DNA of 64,000 bases, taken from Balanoglossus misakiensis. Its lineage: Eukaryota > Animalia > Hemichordata. A program made the position numbers and the translations under genes. Below are positions 1,286 to 57,749 of the stretch, one piece after another. Position 1 is the first letter of the stretch. Each line of letters begins with the position of its first letter. The notes under the pieces are model-generated. The model ran no database searches and was not told where the DNA came from. It saw only the letters and a list, made by a program, of their open reading frames with translations. The stretch spans positions 3,333,943-3,397,942 of the forward strand of contig CM082595.2 in the NCBI GenBank assembly GCA_040954595.2, written 5' to 3'.

Positions 1286-3153
1286 CTCCATCAGGTATTT
1301 AAGCTCAATAGTCTTTTCAAGAGCTCACCACAACTTGGTGGTACATTGTATGTGGCCAAATTGTCCAGGGCCAATCGCCATACAGGCACTGTTGAATACA
1401 CAGCAAGATAACATACCCCATTCTTCATCATTGGCATGATTAAAGCTTATGATCACCTAGAGACACAACGCCTAGAAAAACACGTGGCCAAGGTGTTTGT
1501 GTGACAATATTTACCAGTAAACCAGTCCAATTTTTCTTTTCTTCTGATAGTTACTTTATTTTATTTTCCCAGGCAGCGTCATAGAGTTCCCGTTGTCGAA
1601 TTCGTTTCATGAATATTTCGATTTTGTTTGTGAAACAGTGTCGTCGATATTTTTAAAACTGGTGGTCGAATAAAAGTAAATCTGCACATCAATGTGTGTC
1701 CGTCAATCCGATGACAAATATAACGGGAGCGTCACACCTTAAGTGTTATAGAAGACTAAAAGCACACTGGGAACAGAAAAAACAAGGCATCTAACGACGC
1801 TTTGATTTTCAAATGATATTGTTTTTTATTTCCTTGTAAATGATGTAGTCTGTACTCCTGTTGTTCAGAATTAGATCACAACATACAACTCAGTAATGCA
1901 CGCTGAATAAAAGCACTCTGTACAAACTCGAGACGTTAATCGAGAGAAACATCCTACACGAACTCAAGAGGGCGTGCTACTTATGCACCCTCGTGATAGA
2001 AGCGTATTTACAGCCCGTCAAAAATAGCACAGTAAATGCTGCTAAGTTAAAATACACGAATCTCACTGTTACAAAAATACTCAAACAGTAAAGAACAAAA
2101 CGCCTCTAAAAGATCTGCTTTTCTGTGTGTAAAATATACATGAAAAAAACTAACCCATTTTCAAATCAACATTTAATGTGTCACGTGATTAGCAAGTAAT
2201 TTAATTACTTAAAAATAAATAAATATATACATATATTTTATGATGTTGTTCTGTTCGAATTGAAAAATAGAATATTAGTTGAGTCTATCATTTTTTTAAA
2301 AAGAAAACGTATCAAGCAGATTGTGAGAAAAGTTTTTTCATTTGACTGTAATTCGATCGATTTTTTAAGCTGGCGTTAACGACTGACATCTTTACATCAA
2401 GGATAATCATAGTGAAATAAATAAATTGGACCAAAATACTTCAACATCAAGGCAATATTCTCACGTATACGCCAATTTCCTAAGTACAACACACTTGATA
2501 AATACTGAAATATCTTTTGAAGTTCTGAAATAATTTAGATGAGCTTTAAGCTACTCGCATTGAGTAAAAACGAAGGGCGTTACGTTTTCTATAAGGCCCG
2601 CTTATACAGCCCCACCGCGCGATGGTTTAACCTTTCAAATTTGTGTATTGCACATTCGCCGACAAATTCCCTCCCTTCGTTTTTCTTATTGGTTGTACCT
2701 AGTCGACACCAAACAGTTGGAACAAGAGGCAGAATCGAAAGAAATAGTTTCATGGCCATCAAAAGAAAACAACAATATATGTAAAAATCAGGAAAAGGAC
2801 AATATTCTAACTTATGTTTAGACTTCTAAATTAATAACTGTAGCAACGGGTTGATAGCAAGGTCACGGTAATACAAGTCAAGATTTGTATGAAACTAGAA
2901 AAGGTGCAGAGTTGAACAATAATTTGAACTTTTCGTGTCGTTTACAAGGATGGGCCATGTGTTGTTTGTCCTGTGTCACCTGAGAATGTCCTCTCATATA
3001 AACTGCCTAGCCACGCGAGATCTCGTAGGGTCTCGTGGCGTTCGGAAAGTGGTCTATTTGTGACAACCAATTTGGAGAAATTCAGATTAGGATTATTCCC
3101 GGCGACCCCCTAACGGCAGTAACTGATGACGTCAGTGGACAGACATCATCCAA

Positions 3154-11721
<8,568 letters not shown>

Positions 11722-21363: not shown

Positions 21364-24300
21364 TGTGTGATGTGGTGTGGTGTGGTGTGGTGTGGTGTGT
21401 GTGGTGTGGTGTGGTGTGGTGTGGTGTGGTGTGTGTGGTGTGGTGTGTGTGGTGTGTGTGGTGTGGTGTGGTGTGGTGTGGTGTGGTGTGTGTGGTGTGG
21501 TGTGGTGTGGTGTGGTGTGGTGTGGTGTGGTGTGTGTGGTGTGGTGTGTGTGGTGTGGTGTGTGTGGTGTGGTGTGTGTGGTGTGGTGTGGTGTGGTGTG
21601 TGTGGTGTGTGTGGTGTGGTGTGTGTGGTGTGGTGTGGTGTGGTGTGGTGTGGTGTGGTGTGGTGTGTGTGGTGTGGTGTGGTGTGGTGTGTGTGGTGTG
21701 GTGTGGTGTGTGTGGTGTGTGGTGTGGTGTGTGTGTGTGGTGTGGTGTGGTGTGGTGTGGTGTGGTGTGGTGTGGTGTGGTGTGGTGTGGTGTGGTGTGG
21801 TGTGGTGTGGTGTGGTGTGGTGTGTGTGGTGTGGTGTGGTGTGGTGTGGTGTGTGTGGTGTGTGTGTGTGGTGTGTGTGGTGTGGTGTGTGTGGTGTGGT
21901 GTGTGTGGTGTGTGTGGTGTGGTGTGTGTGGTGTGGTGTGTGTGGTGTGGTGTGGTGTGGTGTGTGTGGTGTGGTGTGTGTGGTGTGGTGTGTGTGGTGT
22001 GGTGTGTGTGTGTGGTGTGGTGTGGTGTGGTGTGGTGTGGTGTGTGTGGTGTGGTGTGGTGTGGTGTGTGTGGTGTGGTGTGGTGTGGTGTGTGTGGTGT
22101 GTGGTGTGGTGTGGTGTGGTGTGGTGTGTGTGGTGTGGTGTGTGTGGTGTGGTGTGTGTGGTGTGTGGTGTGGTGTGTGTGGTGTGGTGTGGTGTGGTGT
22201 GTGTGGTGTGTGTGGTGTGGTGTGGTGTGGTGTGGTGTGGTGTGTGTGGTGTGTGTGGTGTGGTGTGTGTGGTGTGGTGTGTGTGGTGTGGTGTGTGTGG
22301 TGTGTGTGGTGTGGTGTGTGTGGTGTGGTGTGGTGTGGTGTGTGTGGTGTGTGTGGTGTGGTGTGGTGTGTGTGGTGTGGTGTGGTGTGGTGTGGTGTGG
22401 TGTGGTGTGTGTGGTGTGGTGTGGTGTGGTGTGTGTGGTGTGGTGTGTGTGGTGTGGTGTGGTGTGGTGTGGTGTGGTGTGGTGTGGTGTGGTGTGTGTG
22501 GTGTGGTGTGGTGTGGTGTGGTGTGGTGTGGTGTGGTGTGTGTGGTGTGGTGTGGTGTGGTGTGGTGTGGTGTGGTGTGTGTGGTGTGGTGTGGTGTGGT
22601 GTGGTGTGGTGTGGTGTGGTGTGGTGTGGTGTGGTGTGTGTGGTGTGGTGTGTGTGGTGTGTGTGGTGTGGTGTGGTGTGGTGTGTGTGGTGTGGTGTGT
22701 GTGGTGTGGTGTGGTGTGTGTGGTGTGGTGTGGTGTGGTGTGGTGTGTGTGGTGTGTGTGTGTGGTGTGGTGTGGTGTGGTGTGGTGTGGTGTGGTGTGG
22801 TGTGTGTGGTGTGGTGTGTGTGGTGTGGTGTGGTGTGGTGTGGTGTGGTGTGGTGTGGTGTGGTGTGTGTGGTGTGGTGTGGTGTGGTGTGTGTGGTGTG
22901 GTGTGTGTGTGGTGTGGTGTGTGTGGTGTGGTGTGGTGTGTGTGGTGTGGTGTGGTGTGTGTGGTGTGGTGTGGTGTGGTGTGGTGTGTGTGGTGTGGTG
23001 TGGTGTGGTGTGGTGTGGTGTGGTGTGTGTGGTGTGGTGTGTGTGGTGTGGTGTGTGTGGTGTGGTGTGTGTGGTGTGGTGTGTGTGGTGTGTGTGGTGT
23101 GGTGTGGTGTGGTGTGGTGTGGTGTGGTGTGTGGTGTGGTGTGGTGTGTTGTGTGTGGTGTGGTGTGGTGTGGTGTGGTGTGGTGTGTGTGGTGTGGTGT
23201 GTGTGGTGTGGTGTGGTGTGGTGTGGTGTGGTGTGTGTGGTGTGGTGTGGTGTGGTGTGGTGTGTGTGGTGTGGTGTGTGTGGTGTGGTGTGGTGTGGTG
23301 TGTGTGGTGTGTGTGGTGTGGTGTGTGTGGTGTGTGTGGTGTGGTGTGTGTGGTGTGGTGTGGTGTGTGTGGTGTGGTGTGTGTGGTGTGGTGTGGTGTG
23401 GTGTGGTGTGTGTGGTGTGGTGTGGTGTGGTGTGGTGTGGTGTGGTGTGGTGTGGTGTGGTGTGTGTGGTGTGGTGTGGTGTGGTGTGGTGGGTGTGGTG
23501 TGGTGTGTGTGGTGTGGTGTGGTGTGGTGTGTGTGGTGTGGTGTGTGTGGTGTGGTGTGTGTGGTGTGGTGTGGTGTGGTGTGGTGTGGTGTGGTGTGGT
23601 GTGGTGTGGTGTGGTGTGGTGTGTGTGGTGTGGTGTTGTGTGGTGTGGTGTGGTGTGTGTGGTGTGGTGTGGTGTGTGTGGTGTGGTGTGTGTGGTGTGG
23701 TGTGTGTGGTGTGGTGTGTGTGGTGTGGTGTGTGTGGTGTGGTGTGTGTGGTGTGGTGTGTGTGGTGTGGTGTGTGTGGTGTGGTGTGGTGTGGTGTGGT
23801 GTGGTGTGGTGTGTGTGGTGTGTGTGGTGTGGTGTGTGTGGTGTGGTGTGGTGTGTGTGGTGTGGTGTGGTGTGGTGTGTGTGGTGTGGTGTGTGTGGTG
23901 TGTGTGGTGTGGTGTGGTGTGGTGTGTGTGTGTGTGGTGTGGTGTGTTTGGTGTGGTGTGTGTGGTGTGGTGTGGTGTGGTGTGGTGTGGTGTGTGTGGT
24001 GTGGTGTGTGTGGTGTGTGTGGTGTGGTGTGGTGTGGTGTGGTGTGGTGTGTGTTGTGTGGTGTGTGTGGTGTGGTGTGGTGTGGTGTGGTGTGGTGTGG
24101 TGTGGTGTGTGTGGTGTGGTGTGTGTGGTGTGGTGTGTGTGGTGTGGTGTGGTGTGTGTGGTGTGGTGTGGTGTGGTGTGGTGTGGTGTGGTGTGTGTGG
24201 TGTGGTGTGTGTGGTGTGGTGTGGTGTGGTGTGGTGTGGTGTGGTGTGGTGTGTGTGGTGTGTGTGGTGTGGTGTGTGGTGTGTGTGTGGTGTGGTGTGG

Positions 24301-25147
24301 TGTGGTGTGGTGTGGTGTGGTGTGGTGTGGTGTGTGTGGTGTGGTGTGTGTGGTGTGGTGTGTGTGGTGTGGTGTGGTGTGGTGTGGTGTGGTGTGGTGT
24401 GTGTGGTGTGGTGTGTGTGGTGTGGTGTGTGTGGTGTGGTGTGTGTGGTGTGGTGTGTGGTGTGGTGTGGTGTGGTGTGGTGTGGTGTGGTGTGGTGTGT
24501 GTGGTGTGGTGTGTGTGGTGTGGTGTGTGTGGTGTGGTGTGGTGTGGTGTGGTGTGGTGTGGTGTGTGTGGTGTGTGTGGTGTGGTGTGGTGTGGTGTGT
24601 GTGGTGTGGTGTGTGTGGTGTGGTGTGTGTGGTGTGGTGTGGTGTGGTGTGTGTGGTGTGGTGTGTGTGGTGTGGTGTGTGTGGTGTGGTGTGGTGTGGT
24701 GTGTGTGGTGTGATGTGTGTGGTGTGGTGTGTGTGGTGTGGTGTGGTGTGGTGTGTGTGGTGTGTGTGGTGTGGTGTGTGTGGTGTGGTGTGGTGTGGTG
24801 TGTGTGGTGTGGTGTGTGTGGTGTGGTGTGGTGTGGTGTGGTGTGGTGTGGTGTGGTGTGGTGTGGTGTGGTGTGGTGTGGTGTGTGTGGTGTGGTGTGG
24901 TGTGGTGTGGTGTGGTGTGTGTGGTGTGGTGTGTGTGGTGTGGTGTGTGTGGTGTGGTGTGGTGTGTGTGGTGTGGTGTGTGTGGTGTGGTGTGGTGTGG
25001 TGTGGTGTGGTGTGGTGTGTGTGGTGTGGTGTGTGTGGTGTGGTGTGTGTGGTGTGGTGTGTGTGGTGTGGTGTGGTGTGGTGTGGTGTGTGTGGTGTGG
25101 TGTGGTGTGTGTGGTGTGGTGTGTGTGGTGTGGTGTGGTGTGGTGTG
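21364..25147. repeat. About 3.8 kb (GTGTG)n / (CACAC)n pentanucleotide satellite with interspersed 9-mer variants
   Basis: Near-pure G/T array. The six 1100-1350 aa ORFs across it are stop-free artefacts. Confidence 0.98.
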
Positions 25148-27175: not shown

Positions 27176-30100
27176 TCAATTGCGTCTTTTCTGTATGTCT
27201 TTCAGCAAATCTCCTCTTCCCGCAGATGGTGGTTTTGATTCTGTTTTGGTTGCTTCGGAAAGATCTGGAGGTGGAGGGGCTTTGCCACTAGGAGGGGGAG
27301 GGGCTCCCCCGCCGGATTTTCCTGTTGTTTTTGTTTGTTTACTGTCTTTTTTGCTTGTGGGTGCCTTTCCAGAAGAACCTCCCTCAGAAATAGTAGGCTC
27401 GGTCCGTTTTTTCTGTATGTCCTTTAGCAAATCTCCCCTTCCTGCAGATTGTGGTTTCGATTCTGTTTTGGTTGCTTCGGAAAGATCTGGAGGTGGAGGG
27501 GCTTTGCCACTAGGAGGGGGAGGGGCTCCCCCGCCGGTTTTTCCTGTTGTTTTCGTTTGTTTACTGTCTTGTTTGCTTGTTGATGCCTTTCCAGAAGAAC
27601 CTCCCTCAGAAATAGTAGACTCGGTCCGTTTTTTCTGTATGTCCTTTAGCAAATCTCCCCTTCCTGCAGATTGTGGTTTCGATTCTGTTTTGGTTGCTTC
27701 GGAAAGATCTGGAGGTGGAGGGGCTTTGCCTTTTGGAGGAGGAGGGGCTCCCCCGCTGGATTTTCCTGTTGTTTTCGTTTGTTTACTGTCTTGTTTGCTT
27801 GTGGGTGCCTTACCAGAAGAACCTCCCTCAGAAATAGTAGGCTCGGTCCGTTTTTTCTGTATGTCCTTTAGCAAATCTCCCCTTCCTGCAGATTGTGGTT
27901 TCGATTCTGTTTTGGTTGCTTCGGAAAGATCTGGAGGTGGAGGGGCTTTGCCTTTTGGAGGAGGAGGGGCTCCCCCGCTGGATTTTCCTGTTGTTTTCGT
28001 TTGTTTACTGTCTTGTTTGCTTGTGGGTGCCTTGCCAGAAGAACCTCCCTCAGAAATAGTAGGCTCGGTCCGTTTTTTCTGTATGTCCTTTAGCAAATCT
28101 CCCCTTCCTGCAGATTGTGGTTTCGATTCTGTTTTGGTTGCTTCGGAAAGATCTGGAGGTGGAGGGGCTTTGCCACTAGGAGGGGGAGGGGCTCCCCCGC
28201 CGGTTTTTCCTGTTGTTTTCGTTTGTTTACTGTCTTTTGTGCTTGTTGATGCCTTTCCAGAAGAACCTCCCTCAGAAATAGTAGGCTCGGTCCGTTTTTT
28301 CTGTATGTCCTTTAGCAAATCTCCCCTTCCTGCAGATTGTGGTTTCGTTTCTGTTTTGGTTGCTTCGGAAAGATCTGGAGGTGGAGGGGCTTTGCCACTA
28401 GGAGGGGGAGGGGCTCCCCCGCCGGTTTTTCCTGTTGTTTTCGTTTGTTTACTGTCTTGTTTGCTTGTTGATGCCTTTCCAGAAGAACCTCCCTCAGAAA
28501 TAGTAGGCTCGGTCCGTTTTTTCTGTATGTCCTTTAGCAAATCTCCCCTTCCTGCAGATTGTGGTTTCGATTCTGTTTTGGTCGCTTCAGAGAGATCGGG
28601 AGGGGCAGGTGCTGGACCACTTGGAGGTGGAGGGGCTCCCCCGCTGGATTTTCCTGTTGTTTTAGTTTCTTTACTGGCCGTTGGTGCCTTAGGTTCGGTC
28701 CGTTTTTTCTGTATGTCTTGAAGTAAATCGCCTCTTCCCGAAGACTGTGGTTTTGATTCTGTTTTGGTCGCTTCAGAGAGATCGGGAGGGGCAGGTGCTG
28801 GACCACTTGGAGGTGGAGGGGCTCCCCCGCTGGATTTTCCTGTTGTTTTAGTTTCTTTACTGGCCGTTGGTGCCTTAGGTTCGGTCCGTTTTTTCTGTAT
28901 GTCTTGAAGTAAATCCCCTCTTCCTGAAGACTGTGGTTTCGATTCTGTTTTGGTTGCCTCAGAGAGATCTGGAGGGGCAGGTGCTGGACCACTTGGAGGT
29001 GGAGGGGCTCCCCCACTGGATTTTCCTGTTGTTTTAGTTTCTTTACTGGCCGTTGGTGCCTTAGGTTCGGTCCGTTTTTTCTGTATGTCTTGAAGTAAAT
29101 CGCCTCTTCCCGAAGACTGTGGTTTTGATTCTGTTTTGGTCGCTTCAGAGAGATCGGGAGGGGCAGGTGCTGGACCACTTGGAGGTGGAGGGGCTCCCCC
29201 GCTGGATTTTCCTGTTGTTTTAGTTTCTTTACTGGCCGTTGGTGCCTTAGGTTCGGTCCGTTTTTTCTGTATGTCTTGAAGTAAATCCCCTCTTCCTGAA
29301 GACTGTGGTTTCGATTCTGTTTTGGTTGCCTCAGAGAGATCTGGAGGGGCAGGTGCTGGACCACTTGGAGGTGGAGGGGCTCCCCCACTGGATTTTCCTG
29401 TTGTTTTAGTTTCTTTACTGGCCGTTGGTGCCTTAGGTTCGGTCCGTTTTTTCTGTATGTCTTGAAGTAAATCCCCTCTTCCTGAAGACTGTGGTTTCGA
29501 TTCTGTTTTGGTTGCCTCAGAGAGATCTGGAGGGGCAGGTGCTGGACCACTTGGAGGTGGAGGGGCTCCCCCACTGGATTTTCCTGTTGTTTTAGTTTCT
29601 TTACTGGCCGTTGGTGCCTTAGGTTCGGTCCGTTTTTTCTGTATGTCTTGAAGTAAATCCCCTCTACCTGCAGATTGTGGTTTTGATTCCGTTTTGGTCG
29701 CTTCAGAAAGATCGGGAGGGGCAGGTGCTGGACCACTTGGAGGTGGAGGGGCTCCCCCGCTGGATTTTCCTGGTGTTTTCGTTTCTTTACTTTTCGCCTT
29801 AGGTTCTGTCCGTCCTTTCTGTATATCTGTCAGTAGATCTCCCCTTCCAGATGGCTGTGCTTTTGGTTCAGTCTTTGTTGCATCTGAAAGATCTGGTGGT
29901 GGTGGGGCTGGACCACTTGGTGGGGGTGGGGCTGGACCACTTGATGGGGGTGGGGTTGGACCACTTGGTGCGGGTGGGGTTGGACCAGAAGGTGGCGGGA
30001 GACCTGCTTTGGTTGGTTCCGAGTCAGTCTTCGTAGCACCTGACAGGTCTGGTGGTGATGGTGCCTTGCCAGCCGGCGATGGGGGTGCGGCTGCGGGCTT

Positions 30101-33100
30101 TTTCTCTATTCCCCCGGGGGCTTTGGGTTTTCCATCAGGTAGACCAGCGTCCGGAGGGGCCATAGGGGGAGGTGGTTCACCACTTGGTGCCGAAGGTGGC
30201 GCTGTTGCTGCGGATGCCTTTTGTGGCTTGCTGATTTCTTTCGGCTGTGATTTAGTCTTTGTTTTTGGTTTACTTGCAAGAGCCGGCGGGGCAGGAGTCT
30301 TTTTGTCTTCATTTCCCACAGAAACCGGTTCTGGTGGTCCAATGTCATCTCTGTAATTTTAAGCAAGAAATACAACAAAATATTAAACTTTACCAGAGAA
30401 GTTACAGTGGTTCTACAGTATATGTAAACAAATGAAAATATAATGTAAATTTAGGAAGTTTTGTCTTTTCTATGATATTACTAGTAAAACAGTAAGTATA
30501 AATCGTGTTAATTTGCAAGTTTTGATATCCACCGCCTTGACCTCTGGTAAAGTTTTTGATGGATTACATCACACGACATTTTGTTTTTAGTCAGTATGAT
30601 TTTATTACAATTCAATCAAACTTTTAAATTAAGCCAATTACAGAACATGTGCCAAATACTTCTGTGGTCAACTTCACAGTTTAGCATCTATATCTACCAA
30701 TGGAATGGAAGCCTAGCAAAAAGCTTGGATAAACAAGAGTGTATAAAAAGGAAATTACGGTGGAGGTGGCGGCGGTGGTGGTGGGGGTGGAGGTCCGTCC
30801 CCACCAGGCGGAGGAGGCGCGTCGGCTCCAGGCGGTGGAGGGGCACTGCTGCCTGGAGGTGCCGGAGCACCCCCGGGAGGAGGAGGTGGACCTCCGCCCG
30901 GGGGTGGAGGCGCATCTGGGGGAGGAGGCGCGTTAGGCGGAGGTGGTGCATCCGGGGGAGGGGGTGCCGCTGGTGCCGCAGGGGCGTCTGGTGGTGGGGG
31001 TGGTGCTTCTGCTGCCGGTGCTGCTGCCGGTGGGGGCGCAGGCTCAGGAGCAGGTGCGGGTGCAGATGCTTGTGATATGTAAGATTCCACTGAATAACTT
31101 GGACTTGGAGCCTTCGCTGGCTTCTTCTTTTTGTCAGATCCACCTTTCTTTTTCTCTGGTTCTTTCTTTTTGGGTTTGTCATCTTTCTTTTTGTCCTTTT
31201 TCGGCGCCTTCTTCTCTTTCTCTTTCTCCTTTTTCTCTTTCTCTTTCTTCGCCTTTTCTTTTTCCTTCTTTTCTTTTTCCTTCTTTTCCCGTTCCTTCTT
31301 CTCTTTCTCTCTTTTGGCTTTCTCCTTTGCTGCTTTCTGTTTGTCTTTATTTGGTTTCTTCTTCACTGGCTCTTCCTCTTCTGAATCGGATGCGATGGAC
31401 CCCTCCTCTTCATCTCCGTGTCTGGATCCAGTTCTGGAACTGTGTAGAGGGAATGTGATGTGATCAGAAATTTGACTGTGAATGATTTCATTCTGATAAG
31501 AAGTGCTACATTCTCCATATGTCGCATTTCCGATATTTCCCTGATGATCAAAGATTGATATTTATAATCATAAGCACTTAGTTGATACTTACCCCAGACA
31601 TTGCCGTATGGATATCCCCATGGCGACAGTCAGGAGAATGACAGGCAGTGAGACAGGGGCTACTATTGATAAGATGGGCAACTCTTCTGTGAATATAAGA
31701 TTAGAGGTGGATATTGTAATCTGTGGGAATTCAGCCACTGTTACCATGGAAATTTGGCATATAAATTTTGACTTTGGTGACCACACGAAGCTGCTGTTGT
31801 CCCTTTGATATTGTTTTGGATGTGTTAAAGTTTTCTTTTGTGAGATCAACTATGTATCATGTTTACATTGCTCTGCTAGCTTACAAACAAGGTACAAGGT
31901 ATGCAAATTGTGGACAATGAAAGAATGTACTGATTTGTGAATCTTACCATTTCCGTAGAGTTTCTTTGGATCAAATGGTGTCATGTTTACTGAAAAAAAT
32001 AGAAAGCGGATCGTGAATGATTCCGGAAGTGGACATTTCCTTATTTCTGTGCATGTTTAACTGTTTTCATTCAAAGTCTGAGCGGTTATATTTTATGACT
32101 TGTCATGGTAGATATTCCTTACCTTTTAAAAGGATCACATTTGTAATAACTGTTGTGTGTCCACGAGTCACTTCACAGGCGTAAATTCCACTGTCTTCAG
32201 GTTTTGTCGACAGAATCTCTAAATCTCCGTAGTTGATCAGTTTCCTGTTACCTGAAATTACAAATACATGGTTATAACAGTTATGTATGTATCTAGCTAT
32301 ATATCTGTCTGTGTCCCTCTCTGTATTTCTCTCTCTCTCGCTATCTATATATCCCAAATGTTTTCACTACCAACCTTCGATTGAAAACAACTCGTCGTTC
32401 TTCAACCAGTGGACGCTGGCGTCCTCGTATTTCTTCATGTACCAGTCAACCAAGCAATGCATCTTAGCCCCCATGCCGTGACCCACGTGCAGCTCATGTA
32501 ACAATGTACCATCTGTAAAATTAAAATTTCTCGAGATATTAGCTGATAGTGGCCAGTCCAGGGACTTTCCTAAACTGGTCGTTATAGACAGGTGGCCTTG
32601 TCAATTGGTGTTCATGTAAATTGTAAGGGGTCTGCAACAAATTGGCCAATAGGTGGCCACAGTGGCCTATAGAGGTGACCACAAACACAGGTTTGACTAT
32701 ATTGATATCTTACCGACACATAGGCTTTCGGTGAAGCAGTTGTCGGCGGCTATGGCGTCGCCTGGACAGTTGTGTACCCCCGTCGTCTGGTCCATTCCTA
32801 GTCTGCACGTCCTTTCACGTGTCACGACCCCCTGTCCACACGTCACTGAACACTTGGACCAAGAACTCCAGGCATCCCAGCCGCCTGATTCTGGATTTTT
32901 GTAAGGAAAGGAAATTGTTTAATTATCACCTGATGGAAAGACACTTGTTGCATGTCGGGGTAGTTATTGGAAAAAAGAACAAAACTTGTATTGAGCATTG
33001 CCAGTGTATCCGGTGGTAAAACTTAAAGGCAAAGGTTGCAAAATATTTTATTAATATCAAAATCGGTGGATATTACTAGAAAGATGTCTCGTGCTTTGTA

Positions 33101-35318
33101 CGCATTACCAAGTGGTTTCTGCTATTTTGATTGCTTTGCTTGCGCATTCCAAATATTTGTCTCCCGGCACGACCATGAACGCAACCTTGCAACGTGTTCA
33201 CAAGACTTACCTCCGTGGCCGGAGCCTGATTGGCTGGGACAATTTGTCGGAGTGCAGGATTCCGTCTGCAGGGTCTCATCCCCACAGTCGCTCTGGTCTG
33301 CCTTGTCGCATGACCGTTCTCGTCGCCGAGTTTCGCTGTGGCAGTCACAGTGCGACCAAGGCGTCCATTGTGTCCACGTGACTCGAAGCGTAGCTACATG
33401 GACCAAAACGTTATTGTGTTATTCGTGATTGTATATTTTGCATGTGAGATAGGACGTTTTCCTCCAGAAGTGCCTTATTTGGTCGTACAATTTGAAGAAT
33501 TGTCGTTTCTGAATGTTTTATTATAATTTTTTATCAAGGATACCTGTTGAATATATTGAACGGCCAATCCGGAATTGAATGAGAAACAATTGTGTCAAAC
33601 AACTGCAGATAAGCTTACCCGCCAGAGCTTCACACTCGTTTGTAAATGGGTAACAAGGTTCCGTCACCGTGCCCTCGCCGGGGCAGTTCGAAGCCGTTAT
33701 CAGTGAGCCTCCCTCGACGATGGCTTGACACTCGCGCAGCATCTGGCGCGATCCCTTCACACATCCGGGAACGCTGACGGTTGAACAGGGCGACCATTCC
33801 GACCACCTGCTCCATTCTCCATCTTGTTCGCAAAAAAAAAAAAATGAGAGGACAATTCAAATTTGATATATGTCCGATCAAAATGGCGCTTTAAGTCTAC
33901 TGTGGCGAATTTCTACAATACTGTGGGCAATTATTCATCTTCTAAGTCCGGACTGAAAATCAAAATCATCTTCAGAGTTTCCTACCTGGGCATTCAAATT
34001 CGTTGCACGCCTCCACCTCCATCGCGTCGCCTTCGCAAACATCACTGATCGTTTCGTCCAGCTTGTTGAGACAGTTTCTTTCCCGGCGACGCGTGCCACC
34101 GAGACACGTTTGCGTGCACTGCAACCATTCAGCCCAGTGCGTCCATTCTGAAAAGATTGGGGCATATTTTTTATTTAATATTTATCATTTATTTAAATCA
34201 GGATTTAAATAATAGTCTCGGTTACCCAGAACCCTTTGCTTCTTCCGCTGCGCTTCAGAAAAGGAGCGCAGCGGAAAAAGCAAAGGTTCTGGGTAACCGA
34301 GACTAGTCACTGACTTGCCACTTGAACTCACCGTCACAGGGTCCCATGTCACACTCTTCTTCTTCTGTTCTTTCTCCAGAACAGTCTTTCGACGCCTGGC
34401 CATCGGCGGTCTCGCACGACCTCTTCCGGTGTCTCACTCCAGCGAGGCAAGCCACCGAACAGTCCGACCAAGCACCCCACTCCTTCCAGGCGCCTGTGGA
34501 TATACATCGGAACGTCGGTCAGAGGTCAACCGATCAAGAAAGGAGGTGGGTACAGTTTGGGTGGGATAGTGTAAGGTACGGTTGGTGTCTTAGGTTAGGT
34601 TAGGTTAGGTTAGGTTAGGTTAGGCAGGTACTGAACGCTGGCTTTTGAGCCTCTATATTCAGCTCCACTTCAGTCCATCATTGGGGTAGTTTTTCTCGGA
34701 TCTGGTTTGTATGATGTAGGGTTCGGAGTAGTTGTATTTCATTGTGTCTTGTCTGTTGTTAAGACAGCACACTGCCTTATGGCATTGACTGTATACAATT
34801 TTTGCAACCGGAGTCTCTGGTTTGTCGCGCATAAGACGATCGTCCGAGAGTAACAAACATTCGGTACCTTAATATTGTACACAAATCAGAAATTTCTGAA
34901 CAGTTTTACCTGGACAGGGCTCGTTGTCGCATGGTAATTCTTCTGTTGGTAATCCCTCACAATCAGTAGATGGCTCGGTCCTCTTAATTAAACACTCTCT
35001 AGTGCGAACTATGACGTCATCTCCACAAGTCGTAGGACAGTCTGACCATTGGCCCCATTTCGACCACCTGGCGGTTGCTTTAGACAAGAAAGTACAAGAA
35101 AGACAAAACATCACCATTTCCATAACGTTTTCTTAAAAATTGAATATGTATTGAACCAAACGAAAACGACTTCCAGGTTTTCAGTTGTGAGCTTGAGTAT
35201 ATATCATAAACTATCCGTTTTGAACGGCTCCATGGATAAGCTTTGCAGACTTACCACCATGGACTTCGGAGACCTTCGTAATCAACACAGCTAAAATTAT
35301 CCACGTCCCTTGAAACAT
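27176..35318 (-). CDS. Paralog A: type-I membrane protein with signal peptide, 6 TSP1, Ig, TM, KE-rich and polyPro tail, and optional 14x Pro-rich/WH2-like repeat exon. About 1792 aa long form, about 735 aa if stopping at 30755 (exons 35318-35255, 35077-34910, 34493-34332, 34147-33986, 33822-33619, 33393-33211, 32890-32714, 32512-32375, 32251-32123, 31989-31948, 31686-31593, 31439-30759, 30350-27176)
   Basis: Signal peptide [21 protein letters not shown]. Six phase-1 exons carry the WxxWxxWxxC..RxRxC TSP1 pattern. The Ig domain reads C..W.K...GDLEI...DSGIYAC. The hydrophobic segment is [25 protein letters not shown]. All junctions are GT-AG and phase-compatible. The join to the last exon is inferred. 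Confidence 0.85.
27190..29900 (-). repeat. Coding minisatellite: 186-bp (62 aa) and 222-bp (74 aa) tandem units, 14 copies of GRGDLLxDIQK
   Basis: The Q-type motif recurs from 28711 to 29641 (5 x 186 bp). The K-type units are spaced 222 bp apart. The reading frame is preserved throughout. Confidence 0.95.
34213..34305. mobile_element. Short palindromic MITE-like element flanked by TA
   Basis: TAGTCTCGGTTACCCAGAACCCTTTGCTT ... AAGCAAAGGTTCTGGGTAACCGAGACTA forms a near-perfect hairpin. The same terminus recurs at 63914. Confidence 0.75.
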
Positions 35319-46770: not shown

Positions 46771-47170
46771 ATACAAACGTCTTGATAAATAAGATTTTAG
46801 GCCCTTTGACATTTCTTGGAAACATGAAGTGTCAGAGAGTGATGGGTTTAGGGATAGGTTTTAGGACCATGTTTAAGACCTGTGACCCTTGACCCTGGTC
46901 AAAAGTATATACTGTAAAACGGGAAATTTTCAAGATAATAAATAAAGCAGCAACTTTTACGCAACGATTATTTTTCGAGTTCTTGTATTTCACTGTATTG
47001 TTATATCTGAAAAACATTTTTACGCAACTTTTTGGGGGCATTTTTTGGCTCTCACGTAGTTTGCGAAAATTTCCCATTTTATTAAGCCTCATTAAATCAT
47101 ATTTTGATGACTTATGTGTGAATTTTGCCTTATTTGAACAGTGACATTGAAGTACCAACCATCTTAGACG

Positions 47171-50100
47171 ATGTCCACTAATGATGACAAGGGAGCTGGG
47201 ACGTACAGTCGATGGGAAGCTGATCCCGACACCATCGACATCGGCATTGACTATCACCGGCCCTTACCTGCCAGGCAATGGCCTGAATGGTGTTCGGGAA
47301 AGCCCGGGATTGCCTTGAAAGTCTTTCTGGCCATTTTCATTTTCTTGGTCGGGATCATACTCGGGTATCTGACACGGCGGCATCTGGTGAGTGTGGAATC
47401 TGTGTGCGATCAGCTGATGCTGGGATACAGTGTTGATGATGGCGTGACCCTGAAAGGAGAACTTCAAGCTGAAAATTTAGAAGAATTTCTGTCGTAAGTC
47501 TTCCGTCTATGTCCAGTATTTCTTTTCAAGTACTTATTTCCGCAATCCATTTCCACTATTGATACGTTAAAGGGACAAAGTCTCTCTCTCGCTGCCCCTT
47601 TTCCATTAATAATGTTTGATGCAAGACACTGTTTATGTTATTCTACATGCGGATATATAGTGAATCAACGTTCGACCACACACAACTTCCATCCCGTTTG
47701 TAGGATATGAGAGTAAAAATCCCGTCAAAATGAATAAATGGTAAAGAACGATTATTCATTTTGGCGAGTTTTTCACTCTCCTGTCTATAAGAGGGATGGA
47801 AGGTGTGTGTGGTTGAACGTTCATTCACTATATATCCACATGTAGTATAACAAACGTTGTCTCTTATCAAATAAAATTAATGGAAAAAAGGGCAGTGAGA
47901 GAGAGACTTTGTCCCTTTAATCTCTGGTGCATGATGTTAGTCACTCACACACGAAAGATCATATCTTGTTCTCTTTTAGGTATTTTTCCAACGCATCTCA
48001 TCCGGCAGGAAGTCTAAAGAACACGGAAAGAGCTCAGTTTATCAGTCAAAAGTGGGAGGAATACGGATTCAAAGTACAGACGAAATCCTACAATGTCTTG
48101 CTCTCCTCACCAAGCAGGTAGAGATTCATTTCCAGCAAATCTGACCCAGCATATCTTGCATACCTGAACAGATATCAATTGACATAATTTGGACTATCTT
48201 TGCTATGTGTTACAAGATGTTGGATAAATTATGCTGTACATTATTGCCATAAATTATGCTGAAATAGAAAGGCATTCTCGTAGTACCACCATGTATTGGA
48301 TTTCTCAGGAATCTGTGAAATAATAGGAGTTTGCTAGATTCATGTATAAAGTACACTTCAGACTAGCATAAAGTGGGGATTGTGCATAATTTTAATTCTG
48401 TTTTCCCCCATTGCAGCGAGACACAAAACAAAGTTGCCATAATGAATGAACAGAGAGCTGAAGCAGTTTCCATAATTCCAATGGACGGATCTTCACCAGA
48501 TCTGGAACAACCATTCAGTGCCTACAGCACCTGTGATAGTGGCTCCTGTATACGAGAAGTATGTACATGTACATATCTATACGTTAGTGGGGAAGAAATC
48601 TGAAAGAATTATTACAAACAGTAATGGAAATTCAGCTGCACTAATTATTTGTCTTAGAAAAATTTAAAGAGTCCAAAAATGAAATTGCAAATTTTTTTGT
48701 TCTAGAAGTGATTTCAAAGCTGTGTTATTTATTGTACATGTGTTATTTCAGGGGAGCCCTGTGTATGTGAATTATGGAACGCAAGAGGACTTTGAAAAAC
48801 TGAATTCATTGGTAGCCGATGCCGCAAGGAACAATATAGTCATCATGAGATACGGGAAATTACACAGAGCAAATATGGTATGTACAGTTGTGTAGTGTAG
48901 TTTGGAGATACACATATTCATTGGTACTCATTTGCCATTGACCTAGACAAACATTACTTCCACATTGAAGACAGCAGGGTTTGCACCAAATGACGACATG
49001 ATCCGTATGTCCTTTTTCCAGGTGAAAAATGCACAGGAAGCAGGAGCCATTGGAGTCGTCATGTTTCCCGATGCCAAAGACTTCGCCCAGGAAGGCATCG
49101 CACCGGAGAAAGTCTACCCAAACACATGGTGGTTGCCCATCAACGGAACAGAGAGGAACTCCTTGTATCTCAGTAATGGTGACCCCCTCACACCGGGACT
49201 ACCATCCATAGGTGAGTGTCTTTTGAACGCCGCATTTTCTCGGTCAAAATGTGGTGCTACATTTTAAAAAATTTCTCCCATTTTTCGGTATTTTTCACCT
49301 TAATTTTAGATCAAGTTGATATAAGTTCCCATTGTGTTTAGGTCTTGATCAAAATTTGAGAAAAAATGCGGAAAAAGTTATGCAGGTTTTATTTTTTGAA
49401 AGATGACGAGAAGTTGATTATTTTTGTACATTTTCTGACTCAGATGAAGCATACCATGTGAACGAGGAATCGGTCAACTTCCCCGGCATTCCTGTCCAAG
49501 CCATCAGTTTCGGAGACGCACAGAAGATCATGTGTGGCTCTTAGTAAGTCTATCAGTGTTTACCCCTCTCACCTCTATTTCCCTTTACGGAGATCCAGCT
49601 TTACCATAGAAAACAATAGAATTTGACCTAACCATGGTGGTGAAAGGGTTAAATATTTGTTTTCTCTGTACATGTTTATCTATGTCTGCTATGTTGTACT
49701 CCCTGTAACCAAACACACTATCACAAAAATTTCAGTGCACAAAAGGATACGAATCTCACCATTCCAACTTCTAAGTGATCTTGATTCTGTATCTTAAATA
49801 TCAGGACCAGGCCTAACCCCCAGTTCTTTTCTCATGTTGTATCGTCTTGTGCTTTGCAGTAAACTGGTTGCCCCGGACGCTCCTGAAGCCTGGCAGGGCA
49901 GTCTGGGTTGCACGTACGGTGTGGGACCGGGATTCGACCAGCCGGAACTGACACTGCAGATGGTGATTCACAACCGGAATGAAGTGAAGACCATCACCAA
50001 TGTGCTTGCCACGATTCCGGGATCAACAGAACCAGGTAAATGTTGTCCTTTTTCCGAATGATCATTTTCTGTCAAAGAAAGATGATGAATCAGGCAGATT

Positions 50101-52403
50101 CAAAGAAAGATGATGAATCAGGAAGATGTCTTTCCCACTTCCAATCCCAGCATTGACTGCGTTTGAGAGCCGTAACTTATCCGTGATTTTCATTCCATTG
50201 TTTCCTTAGATCGCTATGTGATCATGGGAAACCACCGCGATTCCTGGACCTACGGAGCCATCGATGCCGGCAGTGGAACGGCCATTATGATGGAATTATC
50301 CAGAACTTTGGGGAAAATGCTAACAAAAGGTATGACCAGTGGAATATTCCTGTAATATTCCGTAATCAATTGAATACAGCTTTCCGGCAAAGTTCACGCA
50401 TGGCCTTGCTCTGAATAAGTCGTGTGATGGCAACAGAAATAAACGAATGTAGGAACTGACATGAAACTGTTTGGCACAGTGAGATTACAATGTGAACTGA
50501 AATTCCCTGTGTTGATTCTCTGTGTCAGCTTCTTGACTGATCGTTCTCTGTTTCAGGTTGGAAACCGCGACGTACAATAATATTTGCCAGCTGGGATGCC
50601 AAGGAGTTTGGCATGATTGGATCAACGGAGTGGGCTGAGGTGACTGAAATGTTTTTGTTTCTTTTATTTGCAATAGGACATGTTTGTCTTCGCAACCCTC
50701 ACTAGTTTTGGAAGTGATGTCAGAGCAAGGGGGCAAAATCTATAGGAGGGTGGGCTAGCCCTTCTGAAACCCTTTAGTTACAAAAAATAATTGTTACATT
50801 GCTTTAATTATCTTCATTTCAAAATGTCTTATTATGTGATGTTTTTCAGGAGTATGAGAAGATGTTGATGAATCGAGCGGTTGCCTACATTAATTTGGAT
50901 GCGGTTGTCATGGGAAGTTATTCTCTGTCGGCTGGTGCTAGTCCTCTTCTCAATAAAGTTATCTACGAGGCCACCAAACAGGTAAATTAAAATTTTGAGA
51001 GAGACATTACCTGGAGCCAAATATGAGAACGTGTTTTAAGACTGATTTTCAAGGCGAATACTACAGTAACATTACTAGGTTGAAATTGTTTTTTTCAAGA
51101 CATTCATACTCTTACACATTGCTTCCATAGGTGGCCTGTCCTCACCATGACGATATGTCAGTCTATGAAAACTGGAGGTCAAAGTTCAGTGTCAGCTACA
51201 GTGGCGAAAAAGTTCCACAGTAAGTGACCATGAAATGAGATAGTTATGTCTTGGCGTGTTTGGCATAGATCAGGTTTCTTGACTGATCATATACTCAGAA
51301 ATCATACTAAACGTAATCAATCACCTATGCAAAATTTCCATGGAGACCGTGTACCTTTAAACTGTCATGTGCACTGTGCTCAAAACCATTCCATTTGTTT
51401 TTAGGTCCTTCAGACTTCAAGAATGTAACATTTCCACGTCACATTTTCTTTCATTTCAGAATTACCATCTTAGGCAGTGGATCTGATACACTTCCATTCA
51501 TCCAAACATTGGGCATCCCATCCATGGAACTATCATACACTTTTGATCCAGTAAGTTTCTTGTCACCTACATCATCCATTTCACAAGGGAACTTTTAACG
51601 TTGGCACATCCCCTTCCCCCCCCCCCCACCCCCAAGTTTTTCTTAATAAGGGGCATAAGGAATTTTTAATAGGGGTGTTTGTAATGGCTTAAGGTATACA
51701 AGGCTGTCATGTCCCTATACAAGTATCATCCTTCGCTGATTGACAGGGTGATATGGCTACAATTCTAGCACGCACGACATTCTGCAGGCCCCCTAATGTA
51801 CACATGCCCATATTAGGTTAAAAGGGCGTGGCTAAGTTTTTCGCTTGACCGCCTAAGCGAAACTCTGCGGTTAGCTAGACTTCATATTTCAACTAAAGAG
51901 ACAAGTGACTGTTGCTACCGGAAGTCAACAGTTTTGTCCGCGGAAAATCCAAGAAATAGTCCCTGGAAAGTTAGGGAATTATGAAAAAATTTGAACGTAC
52001 GACAAAAAGCGTAACCATCGCGTGCTTGCGAATCCTCTCACAGAGCCACCATCTTCAGATGTACCCTCTGTACAGCACAGCGTACGACGACTTCGACAGC
52101 GTCAAACGGGTGACCGACCCGACCTTTGAGACCCACCTGGCCATGGCGCAAGTACTCGGCCTCGCCTTACTGCAGCTCTGCGACTCGCTCGTCCTACCGT
52201 TCAACGTCTCGCACTACGCAACGGCCGTGCAGCAATACCGGGATGTTTTTCTGGAGATGGATTCTTTCAAGGACACCTCACAGAGTGAGGACATGGCTGT
52301 CTTGACAGGTAAAGTTATTGCCGAGTCTGTCATTCTCAGTTGTATGATAATGTATTATTATGTGGCTTGGTGTATATGCACTAGTCACTATAATAATAAA
52401 TCA

Positions 52404-52452
<49 letters not shown>

Positions 52453-52459
52453 GTCTGTA

Positions 52460-52490
<31 letters not shown>

Positions 52491-54544: not shown

Positions 54545-55948
54545 CTAGTCGTTTTTATACTCTTGTTCACCACGACAGCGTTTTCTGTTTCTATCAATGA
54601 CACTCTGTAGAGTGACACACAGAGACATGTATCCACTGCGAGAAATGTCGTAACTGCTGAATTTTATCGTCGTTGCCCTGACAACACTGCACGTGCTGGA
54701 AGCGCTTTGAGGGACAGAATACCACGGTACGTCATAGTACCAACCCTGTCGGGGTGCCACCCCTATCCTTTTGAGAACCAAACCAACGTACGCGTCCTCC
54801 CAGGGGAGGTAACGCACAAACTCCGACGTCACGTATATCTGCTTAGCAACATCCGATGACATCACGTAGGCGGGCCCTTCCAAATAAGGCGGATAGGTCG
54901 CTTCTTGGAACATGTCGTAGGACGTGTACCACTTCGAATCGATGTCCCTGACGGGTTTTTCCTTGCGAAACCTGTTGCCTTCCGCAAATCCAGTCTTTGT
55001 GGCGTGATGCAAGATAGTACTGACGACATTCTCGGGGATAACGAACACATCTCTGCCATCAACCTTCATGACGTACTCCGTCCAATGACAAAACAAACTC
55101 ACCCACTTGAAACCCATAATGGTTTTCAGAGTGAGATTATTGTAGTTATCGATGAAGTTCTCCTGAATGATGTCTCCGTGGATGTCGTTTTCTCGCTCTA
55201 TGTCCTCTTGTAGGCGTCTGTCACTGACGGTTCCAAGCAGGAACATGGTGATCACTTTCCTTCCGCGAACGCTCTTTTCCCCTCCCCAGTGTTCGCGGAT
55301 GGCGTCTCGGTTCTCCCTCTCCAGGTGCGTGTTGAACACCAGGATGACGAGGAACAAGTCCGCCCCCGCGTCCCGGCACACGTTCCCGTTGGAGATGAGG
55401 AAGTCAAAGTCATGCTGGTTGATCTTGACCTTCTCGCTGTATAAAGGGATCCCATCCGCGCCCCTGCTGTTATTTCTGGTGGCCAAACCCGCGCTAGAGG
55501 CGGCCAGGTCGCCTTGATTCGAAGCCCCCGCGCGTCGGTGGCGCTCATGCAAATCCAGTTCCTTCTGAGGTGGTGGAAGGCGAGAAATATCATCGAAATG
55601 GTACCCCTCAACTTGACCCTTCGTGTTTTTAACCACACTGCCAACTCCTGAGTATTTTTCCTTGATCAAACTCGGCGAGTGACTCCTGTTTCTCAGATAT
55701 CCTGACGTTTTTTCATCTTTAACTTTCGGCAATGAAGAGGCGTTTTTCCTCTGTTCCAGCGCGAGTAAAACGATCCTGGATGCGTTGCTAAGCGATGATT
55801 GTTTGCTTAAAATGGATCGCTCGCTGTTATATCTCCTCACATCTGTCGACTGGTGCCCGTGGAAGTATAGAAGGAAAATTCCGCTAACGACAAGGCAGTT
55901 TAGCCATACAATCTTCCTTAGGTATCTTGTTCCAAGGAATCTTGCCAT
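54545..55948 (-). CDS. GT31 beta-1,3-galactosyltransferase (B3GALT1-like), single coding exon, 467 aa
   Basis: N-terminal TM and stem, then FLVILV..RDAIREHWG, FLLG, HGDIIQENFIDNYNNLTLKTIMGFKW, SKWY, YPPYLEGPAYVMS and EDAYVG. Confidence 0.93.
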   Translation of the reverse strand: MARFLGTRYLRKIVWLNCLVVSGIFLLYFHGHQSTDVRRYNSERSILSKQSSLSNASRIVLLALEQRKNASSLPKVKDEKTSGYLRNRSHSPSLIKEKYSGVGSVVKNTKGQVEGYHFDDISRLPPPQKELDLHERHRRAGASNQGDLAASSAGLATRNNSRGADGIPLYSEKVKINQHDFDFLISNGNVCRDAGADLFLVILVFNTHLERENRDAIREHWGGEKSVRGRKVITMFLLGTVSDRRLQEDIERENDIHGDIIQENFIDNYNNLTLKTIMGFKWVSLFCHWTEYVMKVDGRDVFVIPENVVSTILHHATKTGFAEGNRFRKEKPVRDIDSKWYTSYDMFQEATYPPYLEGPAYVMSSDVAKQIYVTSEFVRYLPWEDAYVGLVLKRIGVAPRQGWYYDVPWYSVPQSASSTCSVVRATTIKFSSYDISRSGYMSLCVTLQSVIDRNRKRCRGEQEYKND

Positions 55949-57749
55949 CTCCGGTTCCCAGAATACAGAATATCTTTATTTTGTAGGGGGCGATGTCTGT
56001 ATTCGCTATTTACGAGCTGGTGGCATTTTTGTGTGAAAGCTGGATTTTTGGTTTGCTTTGATTGGTTCGTTGGTTTGCTCACGTGTTTGACGATTGGTTG
56101 ATTGGTGAGCGAAAGGAGCAGGTCAGTCTCCGCGGTGGATCCGCGCTCATTAGGAGGGCGCGCGGACGCGTCGACGCGGCGGGACGGACTTGTGCCTGGC
56201 GCTACTGTATAGACGCTCTGGTTAGGAAAATAAATCCTGGGCTGTAATTCTAACTAGGACTTCGCGAAAGCACTGGTTTTCTTCCTTTGCTGCGGTGGAG
56301 CGGGGCAGGCGGTTTGATCGGCTGCAGATATTCGGTGCCTTTAAGCCCGATCGTCAATCTTGCTCAGACATGATCGATTAGTCCAGTCGAGTCGATCCTT
56401 CGAGCACATGGAATTAAAAATGATCCCTCCTGGATTTCCCGGGAAGATCGGCCACCAATCCCTGAATGAATCACTCCAATTCCAGTTGATTCCGTGTAAT
56501 CCCGTTTCCACGCTTGTCGTTATCCAGACTCACACAAAGCGATATTGTACAAAATCCTCTGTCGATCTTCGTTTATGTCGATCTGGAAAAGTACACAATA
56601 GAAGTGTCATATTAAACCAGACACAATTCTAAACCGGCAGACTTTTTTCTTTCTAAATCACGAAGCAGATGTATACGAAGGCAGGAAAAAATGCAGGAAG
56701 AAATCAATTAATATATATTGGAGGCAAAATGTTAATAACTCACTCCAATCTAACGCGAGCATAGCGGGAGCGCACGCCAAAATGACAATGATGGAACGGT
56801 GAATTTTTTTCGAGCGCTCTGGTGGGGTATAGAGTGATTTAAGAGTGTCACCGCCAGGGTCATCTTAATACGGATTTTCACGCTTCAGCGACCGCGGGAC
56901 AAAGACTCGCACGTGTTCTGCAGTCATATCTCAAAAAATACATTCCAGCGTTTTACGACAACCGGGTTAATAGTCGCGTCAATTCGACTGTCAACTCCAC
57001 GCCCTCCGACGTGTTGTTAAAACCATTCGTTACCTGAGAACAAAGGATGACTCATGCTTTTCCCGGAGAGCGACAAAATAAGCGTTAAACACCTATACAG
57101 AATCTACCGACGGGCAATTTGATTCCCAACAAATTTTCTCCGACACGTCTTTTCGTCTGTAAATTAATTTGATACAGGCTTGTGTCAGTAAAGGTATATC
57201 CCCCCTGAAGTTGCCTTTAGGAGTACGAATACTTGATACACAGAGAACGGTGTCAGATATTTTCCTAAAAATTTTGAAACTATCGTACGACGATTTAACA
57301 CTCGCTGGGAGTCTAATTAGTTTCGGATGTAACTCAATTTTCAGGGAGCAAATACGTGAGAGTGTACATGTTATGGACGTCCTTCGCATTTTAACATCCA
57401 TGCAACTATTAGGCCCCCGTTGCTTCGTTCAAAAGGGTGGGATTATTCTTTTTAAAGTGAGTGTTTCGAGATCACCACTGCCTCTCTCTGATATTTCCAC
57501 GGATGGTTGACTGATCGATTGCGAGAGAAATAAAAATGTTTGGCAAAAAAAAATGAAAAATGGCAGTCAAATCTTTTTCATCAGGCATTTGCATCTAAAT
57601 GGAATTGATAAAATTACTCTGTACAGTCAGGTCAAGTAGCTTTTGCAAATTAATAGAGTGGATTTCAAATTGGAGAGAGGTCGGTTTAATCGTCTGGAGA
57701 TATTTTCTTTCTCTCACACACTCTGTCATTCTCCCCAGTCATTATTTCA

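Follow-up and report, generated by a model that had tools for sequence, protein, structure and literature searches.

A TSP1-Ig surface receptor gene of Balanoglossus misakiensis with a candidate alternative last exon encoding 14 proline-rich, WH2-type helix units

Gene A of the hemichordate Balanoglossus misakiensis encodes a predicted surface receptor and is followed by a long exon of proline-rich repeats. The locus is found in a window of 64,000 nucleotides (contig CM082595.2 of assembly GCA_040954595.2, forward-strand positions 3,333,943 to 3,397,942), and all positions given below count from the first letter of this window. On the minus strand, 12 exons separated by GT-AG introns and running from the ATG at 35318 to 30759 splice into a frame free of stops. 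Exon 13, a candidate last exon of the same gene, is located beyond an AT-rich gap, and a tandem paralog, gene B, which shares the exon pattern of gene A and has no repeat exon, lies directly upstream. The features are as follows.

35318-35255, minus strand: exon 1, start codon (ATG) and predicted signal peptide; hydropathy of the N-terminus reaches 2.35.
35077-34910, minus strand: exon 2, one TSP1, phase 1, Pfam TSP_1 36.9 bits.
34493-34332, minus strand: exon 3, one TSP1, phase 1, Pfam TSP_1 44.3 bits.
34147-33986, minus strand: exon 4, one TSP1, phase 1, Pfam TSP_1 38.9 bits.
33822-33619, minus strand: exon 5, one TSP1, phase 1, Pfam TSP_1 18.5 bits (below cut-off).
33393-33211, minus strand: exon 6, one TSP1, phase 1, Pfam TSP_1 26.6 bits.
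32890-32714, minus strand: exon 7, one TSP1, phase 1, Pfam TSP_1 46.7 bits.
32512-32375 and 32251-32123, minus strand: exons 8 and 9, immunoglobulin (Ig) domain, immediately after the last TSP1.
31989-31948, minus strand: exon 10, short stalk; paralog B has the same 42-nt exon.
31686-31593, minus strand: exon 11, transmembrane helix (residues 481-501), ending in a strong phase-2 donor.
31439-30755, minus strand: exon 12, acidic patch, Lys/Glu stretch, SYSVESY and FH1-like polyproline, ending in TAA (30757-30755) or in a weak donor after 30759.
30754-30351, minus strand: AT-rich gap of about 405 nt (30% GC), closed by the strong acceptor of exon 13 at 30350.
30606-30601, minus strand: AATAAA, candidate poly(A) signal of a short form, the only one between 31000 and 26400.
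30350-27176, minus strand: exon 13, 1057 codons, a lead-in of about 150 amino acids rich in Pro/Lys/Ala followed by 14 units.
28504..29933, minus strand: repeat block 1, 186-bp units (62 amino acids), 7.7 copies, 93% matches.
27183..28676, minus strand: repeat block 2, 222-bp units (74 amino acids), 6.7 copies, 95% matches.
41369-36063, minus strand: gene B, 800 amino acids, with signal peptide, eight TSP1, Ig, transmembrane helix, Lys-rich stretch, SYSVESY, polyproline and TAG.

The spliced model of gene A recovers every receptor module that an earlier note on this DNA had read from the letters. Splicing, Pfam scans and hydropathy together yield the hydrophobic N-terminus, six TSP1 domains, one Ig domain, a single transmembrane helix, the Lys/Glu stretch and the polyproline region. 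Five of the six TSP1 exons pass the Pfam TSP_1 cut-off of 21.6 bits, with the fourth TSP1 falling short of it. Pfam matches to the Ig domain are weak and located on its second half; the Ig region is the best-conserved part of the family, and Ig domain plus stalk are 84% identical over 102 amino acids to their counterpart in Ptychodera flava. Three Lys/Arg residues are present on each side of the transmembrane helix, and charge thus does not settle the topology. We place the tail inside the cell, as the earlier note had done, because the signal peptide and 38 cysteines are found on the N-terminal side of the helix. Within this tail, the motif SYSVxSY is kept while its flanks diverge (window ca. 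31090-31070 in gene A and 36325-36300 in gene B, both minus strand; residue 282 of the Saccoglossus protein XP_077868121.1) and represents a possible tyrosine-based docking site. Intron 2 of gene A contains seven perfect TTAGG units (34590-34624).

Exon 13 is clearly protein-coding and consists of a regular array of proline-rich helix units. Each unit is composed of a proline block, a PxDLS motif, a linker and a WH2-type helix with the sequence GRGDLLxDIQK. The minus-strand open reading frame 27176..30358 holds exactly 14 of these helix motifs, spaced by 60, 62 (six times) and 74 (six times) residues, and its stop codon is located two codons beyond the last of them, so that the long exon of 14 proline-block and helix units described earlier is confirmed. 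Its coding status is evident because variation among the 14 repeat cores is mostly silent and at third positions: third positions account for 30 of the 44 variable sites, and of 49 alternative codons 32 are silent as compared with 26% expected, the copies not being independent of each other. On the grounds of this silent-site bias and of the ortholog in P. flava, a satellite artefact was rejected as the origin of the exon. A degenerate 15th repeat past the stop was rejected as no significant DNA or protein match was found. The RGD within the helix motif was likewise rejected as an integrin ligand since it would be cytoplasmic and exon 13 lacks any hydrophobic segment. The exon 13 product is free of aromatic residues, hence of Trp, and terminates in a basic helix, while the linkers between helices are made up of Pro, Gly, Ser, Thr and Lys. 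PxDLS occurs 15 times, in each repeat and at one extra site, and is conserved in P. flava; it appears to match the consensus for CtBP binding.

Relatives of gene A are found in two further hemichordates and one echinoderm, and one of them carries the repeat array. A HMMER search with the last TSP1, Ig and transmembrane region of the P. flava protein gave 3922 matches (E 0.001), crowded by multi-TSP1 proteins, of which the best 150 were listed. Among these 150, a profile of the Ig and transmembrane region singled out three family members (domain E 4e-85, 9e-53 and 8e-32; next 8e-7), namely the P. flava, Saccoglossus kowalevskii (XP_077868121.1) and crinoid Antedon mediterranea (XP_071945678.1) proteins, and further relatives may be hidden among the other matches. 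No further member came from a word search based on the Ig alignment (three among 17 listed of 6087), and other word searches returned one in 12 matches and one in 7988 candidates. The P. flava ortholog (XP_070560188.1), the sole close relative recovered, combines five TSP1 in the model, Ig, transmembrane helix, Lys/Glu stretch and 11 repeats of 71 amino acids, as compared with 62/74 in gene A, in a single gene model, an architecture missed by its automatic name, 'proteoglycan 4-like'. The Saccoglossus and Antedon proteins share the order TSP1, Ig, transmembrane helix and Lys-rich tail and are 51% and 34% identical, respectively, over the last TSP1, Ig and transmembrane region, with SYSVxSY also common to Saccoglossus. 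Both models have N-termini that look cut and neither contains a repeat array; the Saccoglossus tail is acidic. The same architecture, which the earlier note had suggested looking for in related genomes, is present with joined repeats in the P. flava model but not in the other two models. The C-terminus of the Antedon protein carries polyproline and, within its last 8 residues, LLQGIK, a combination of polyproline and terminal LLxxIK seen in none of 161 other fetched proteins. In the window, three exons upstream of gene B (42528-41777, minus strand) encode a segment that by eye looks like a signal peptide and two TSP1 (42280-42113 and 41986-41777) and end in phase 1; they could be another small TSP1 gene, the third at this locus, or else belong to gene B as an alternative 5' end spliced into it.

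Exon 13 fits best as an alternative last exon of gene A, a reading that we consider probable. The junction 30759^30350 is phase-compatible, and its acceptor scores 9.4 bits, exceeding the median of 24 real acceptors and reached by 2 of 210 decoy AGs. Across this acceptor, GC content climbs from 24% to 44-68%. Exon 13 has no in-frame Met before codon 63, and the ATG at its start is out of frame, so an upstream coding exon fits better than a gene start. The strong donor of exon 11 (31593) and the weak donor of exon 12 (30759) are both phase 2 and both open into exon 13; with exon 11 in phase too, the fusion may skip the polyproline exon 12.

A number of observations weigh against the join or against the proposed reading as a whole. 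Donor 30759 scores 2.6 as compared with 4.5-11.6 for the 24 other donors of gene A and paralog B, 26 of 265 decoy GTs score at least as high, and its GT sits within CCG-TAA, overlapping the stop. Paralog B stops at the equivalent point (CCG-TAG) with no repeat exon downstream, AATAAA follows 149 nt downstream of the gene A stop, and the repeat-type helix is absent from both paralog B and the Saccoglossus model. The lead-in of exon 13 is poorly conserved relative to P. flava (28/83 aligned), and a profile comparison between the Antedon helix and the repeat yielded no alignment (probability 8.8%, on a different stretch). The join seen in P. flava carries limited weight and may be a prediction, because the model lacks the signal peptide and the first TSP1 and reads the polyproline exon 12 partly off-frame (ca. 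residues 500-560), likely as a result of assembly indels or a faulty model. Given the weak donor overlapping the TAA, the same stop in paralog B and the AATAAA that follows, a 735-amino acid form without repeat tail, ending at 30755, is likely. We infer three candidate products: 735 amino acids (stop at 30755), 1565 amino acids (exon 11 to exon 13) and 1792 amino acids (exon 12 to exon 13). That at least one long isoform exists can be expected with good confidence. The junction 30759^30350 itself, which the earlier note had put forward, is not confirmed, being in phase but with a donor below all 24 others that overlaps the TAA, and the fusion probably represents one isoform among two or three rather than the only product.

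Two separate genes represent the strongest alternative, although we regard this arrangement as unlikely. Gene A would then encode the 735-amino acid TSP1-Ig receptor, and a soluble polyproline/WH2-helix protein would start at Met 63 (30163) of exon 13, with its first exon, small and non-coding, located within the gap. The TAA stop, the AATAAA and the weak donor are consistent with this, as are donor-like sites within the gap (30698, 4.35 bits; 30394, 6.2 bits) and a Met located six residues past the apparent junction in the P. flava model. However, 405 nt at 30% GC would have to accommodate a promoter as well as a 3' end, the first Met comes after 62 codons that are open and exon-like, and the Antedon model unites the receptor with polyproline and a similar helix in a single chain.

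The repeats appear to be WH2 helices only, with predicted weak actin binding. Pfam WH2 (PF02205) matches 14 stretches of exon 13, giving 74.5 bits for the whole exon with copies summed, and in each of the three single repeats tested it ranks first or is the sole Pfam match (E 0.015-0.046). The helix and LKKT patterns of WH2 reported in PMC3298513 were used as reference. The three hydrophobic helix positions (LLxDIQ, relaxed pattern) are present in 14/14 repeats here and in 11/11 of P. flava, in line with the WH2-helix reading of the earlier note, which is upheld. Between the two species, the majority residue is the same at 15 of 16 positions (0-15 from the motif start) and the proline block of the repeat is conserved, while the distal linker differs at nearly all positions. 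In both proteins the chain ends at most two residues after the last motif, and this shared end marks the helix-only form as a conserved design.

Full WH2 membership is contradicted by several results. The best WH2 stretch spans only profile positions 2-15 of 28, the three single repeats reach 13.8-15.4 bits, below the cut-off of 23.1, and neither the strict helix pattern of PMC3298513 (position 3 being Q, K or T) nor the full WH2 pattern is found in any of the 14 repeats. No solved WH2 structure was matched by the repeat profile at E up to 10. LKKT(V) after the helix is absent from all 14 repeats and from all 11 of P. flava even under the relaxed pattern, the last unit ending too early for one; the idea that LKKT was compressed to KKRT is thus not borne out, and with this half of the motif missing the likeness to Spire, Cobl and VopL is weaker than had been claimed. 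The repeats are not full WH2 family members and may work like WH2. A WIP fragment comprising residues 29-46 is reported to lose only about 10-fold in affinity, as compared with more than 1000-fold for residues 46-63 (PMC7407642). In a Pfam scan, FH2 was not matched in exon 12, exon 13 or the P. flava ortholog, and the acidic Trp region for Arp2/3 is absent from the exon 13 product, so that the tail is not expected to activate Arp2/3 or to act as a formin. With the two or three basic residues that follow it, the helix also resembles the WASP central (C) helix at its basic end. The hydrophobic trio spaced by three of that helix (PMC3298513) is not fully present in the repeats.

We propose that the long isoform acts as a membrane-tethered tail for multivalent actin monomer delivery or tethering. 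Gene A would encode a single-pass surface receptor with six TSP1 and one Ig domain outside the cell, and the repeat exon, used as an alternative last exon, would add a cytoplasmic tail of 14 proline-rich helix units. Binding of a ligand by TSP1 or Ig domains would cluster the tails, and the proline blocks would bind profilin-actin or SH3/EVH1/WW adaptors and hand monomers on. It seems reasonably likely that the individual helices bind monomeric G-actin in its barbed-end cleft at low affinity, with the avidity of 14 copies offsetting the missing LKKT. At the membrane, clustered receptors would supply filament ends with actin monomers or keep hold of these ends. Taken together, the sequence of join, binding and mode of action is put forward tentatively, as a leading reading that falls slightly short of probable. 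One point against it is that the proline runs within the repeats are four residues each, and runs of this length are short for profilin. Surface-clustered WH2 and proline-rich segments of WASP-family proteins have been reported to speed elongation and tether filament ends (PMC5753033); in the present case the module would instead repeat in cis and be clustered by the ectodomain. Compared with nucleation of the Spire type, multivalent delivery or tethering is the better fit.

Other modes of action for a fused product are less compatible with the repeats. The tail could be a disordered scaffold without actin binding, in which proline block, PxDLS and helix bind other partners; the sub-threshold Pfam scores of single repeats, the unmatched strict helix pattern and the 15 PxDLS motifs, conserved as well as the helix, would agree with this, but WH2 as the only or top family in each of the three repeats scanned and the position of the helix after a proline block, as in WASP-family proteins, make it rather improbable. 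Still less probable is a store or sink that holds G-actin beside the membrane until release, which would match the unpolymerized actin found in unreacted sperm. Many low-affinity predicted sites on a long spacer would suit such a store, and at least 80% of the actin of unreacted echinoderm sperm is reported to be monomeric (PMC2110911), but the sequestering beta-thymosins have LKKT and a second helix (PMC7407642), both absent here. De novo nucleation by the fused array in the manner of Spire, Cobl and VopL is improbable to the same degree, since 14 tandem WH2-type helices could concentrate numerous monomers at a single point of the membrane but all of them lack LKKT, are separated by 60-74 residues of Pro/Gly/Ser/Thr/Lys linker and come without an acidic Trp region for Arp2/3. 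Monomer delivery or tethering by a long isoform remains our preferred reading.

Language-model features provide one independent lead towards sperm. For the TSP1-Ig-transmembrane unit of P. flava, TMEM81 clusters occupy ranks 2, 3 and 7 and SPACA1 rank 4 (0.87-0.90), with rank 1 held by an arthropod Ig/Unc5-N cluster (0.93) and not by TMEM81. For the Antedon protein, TMEM81 comes first (0.91, 191/256 features) and SPACA1 second, ranks 1-3 lying at 0.90-0.91. Feature scores of 0.9 arise in 4-10 per 100 shuffled inputs, and the two queries are related to each other. TMEM81 is described as lacking the four-helix bundle and as running from a hinge through a single Ig domain and a linker into one transmembrane helix (10.1101/2023.07.27.550750). 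The order in the gene A family is the same, with a TSP1 domain where TMEM81 has the hinge. The hinge of IZUMO1, in turn, has been reported to resemble the ribbon of Plasmodium TRAP (PMC8406655). The TMEM81 and SPACA1 clusters comprise proteins of 238-282 amino acids without multiple TSP1 or a repeat tail, and TMEM81 is presented as vertebrate-restricted in 10.64898/2026.05.13.724128.

Sequence and fold searches did not confirm the TMEM81/SPACA1 likeness. A fold model of the P. flava TSP1-Ig unit reached a pLDDT of 89.8 with a 16-row alignment as compared with 38.6 without, and shows an Ig fold whose best matches are generic Ig domains (contactin-1, Z 13.7, root-mean-square deviation 2.0 over 95 residues). 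IZUMO1 and SPACA6 are neither among the fold-search matches listed nor among the profile matches listed (best 60 of 1009, 12 of 12 and best 60 of 263), and a structure search with the Antedon protein (Atlas) returned only matches with TM-scores of 0.34-0.40. The IST superfamily (IZUMO1, SPACA6, TMEM95) is characterized by a four-helix bundle and a CXXC pair (PMC12615630); membership was rejected, as the ectodomain of gene A consists wholly of TSP1 exons, Ig and a short stalk. FAM187/SPE-40 proteins, which the SPARK preprint describes as short-tailed with two Ig-like domains, were also rejected, gene A having one Ig domain and a long tail.

The acrosomal role raised by the earlier note consequently gains the TMEM81/SPACA1-like features as a lead, without confirmation from sequence or fold. 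Hemichordate sperm form an acrosomal process in the same way as echinoderm sperm. In echinoderms, its formation by actin polymerization has been known since 1973 (PMC2110911). The range of the family, hemichordates and one echinoderm, fits an acrosomal role, resting on four species. Sperm is our leading guess for the cell type, a possibility to which we give less credence than to the proposed tail mechanism. It is doubtful that gene A is an invertebrate counterpart of TMEM81-type sperm adhesion proteins in which the actin array of the long isoform couples egg contact to the acrosomal actin burst of hemichordates and echinoderms. If the sperm lead holds, the family would provide a candidate factor for positioning and supplying the growth of actin in the acrosomal process, as well as an invertebrate root for TMEM81-like proteins.

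The remainder of the window contains a large satellite and several other genes. A 3.8 kb GTGTG-type satellite of about 788 copies (21365-25147), with a GC skew of 1.0 over 22001-24000, is the source of long spurious open reading frames in several frames. On the minus strand, a compact multi-exon gene at 45552-43565 was read by eye and is presumably YEATS4/GAS41-like, and further open reading frames look carotenoid oxygenase-like (3132-6411), beta-1,3-galactosyltransferase-like (54545-55975) and sulfotransferase-like (60715-61845). On the plus strand, 47168-52490 holds open reading frames that we presume to encode a glutamate carboxypeptidase II-like peptidase.

The modules of the long isoform are known individually, and their combination in one animal membrane protein is the new part. 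Titles and abstract openings, a search largely outside subscription papers, yielded no animal membrane protein combining these modules. Animal adhesion receptors are not known to reach actin other than through soluble adaptors; if our reading is true, surface contact would drive actin growth directly, and the array would offer a natural test of avidity in helix-only WH2 units. WASP/WAVE/WIP and Ena/VASP proteins likewise place an amphipathic LLxxI helix after a proline block and cluster at membranes, but they are soluble and contain a complete WH2 with LKKT, with C and A regions in WASP/WAVE, whereas gene A would place 14 units behind a transmembrane helix. Spire, Cobl and VopL also carry several WH2-type helices in a row. 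These are 3-4 complete WH2 domains, in contrast to the 14 helix-only units with long proline-rich spacers of gene A, and to our knowledge none of the three is an integral membrane protein. Closest in overall layout are Listeria ActA, Burkholderia BimA and plant class I formins, in which a membrane anchor, polyproline and an actin-binding part are united in one chain. ActA and BimA are bacterial surface proteins, the plant formins are based on FH2, which gene A lacks, and none is known to contain TSP1 or Ig domains. A receptor tail with its own proline blocks and actin-binding helices, switched by splicing, would, if true, represent an animal counterpart of ActA, BimA and the plant membrane formins.

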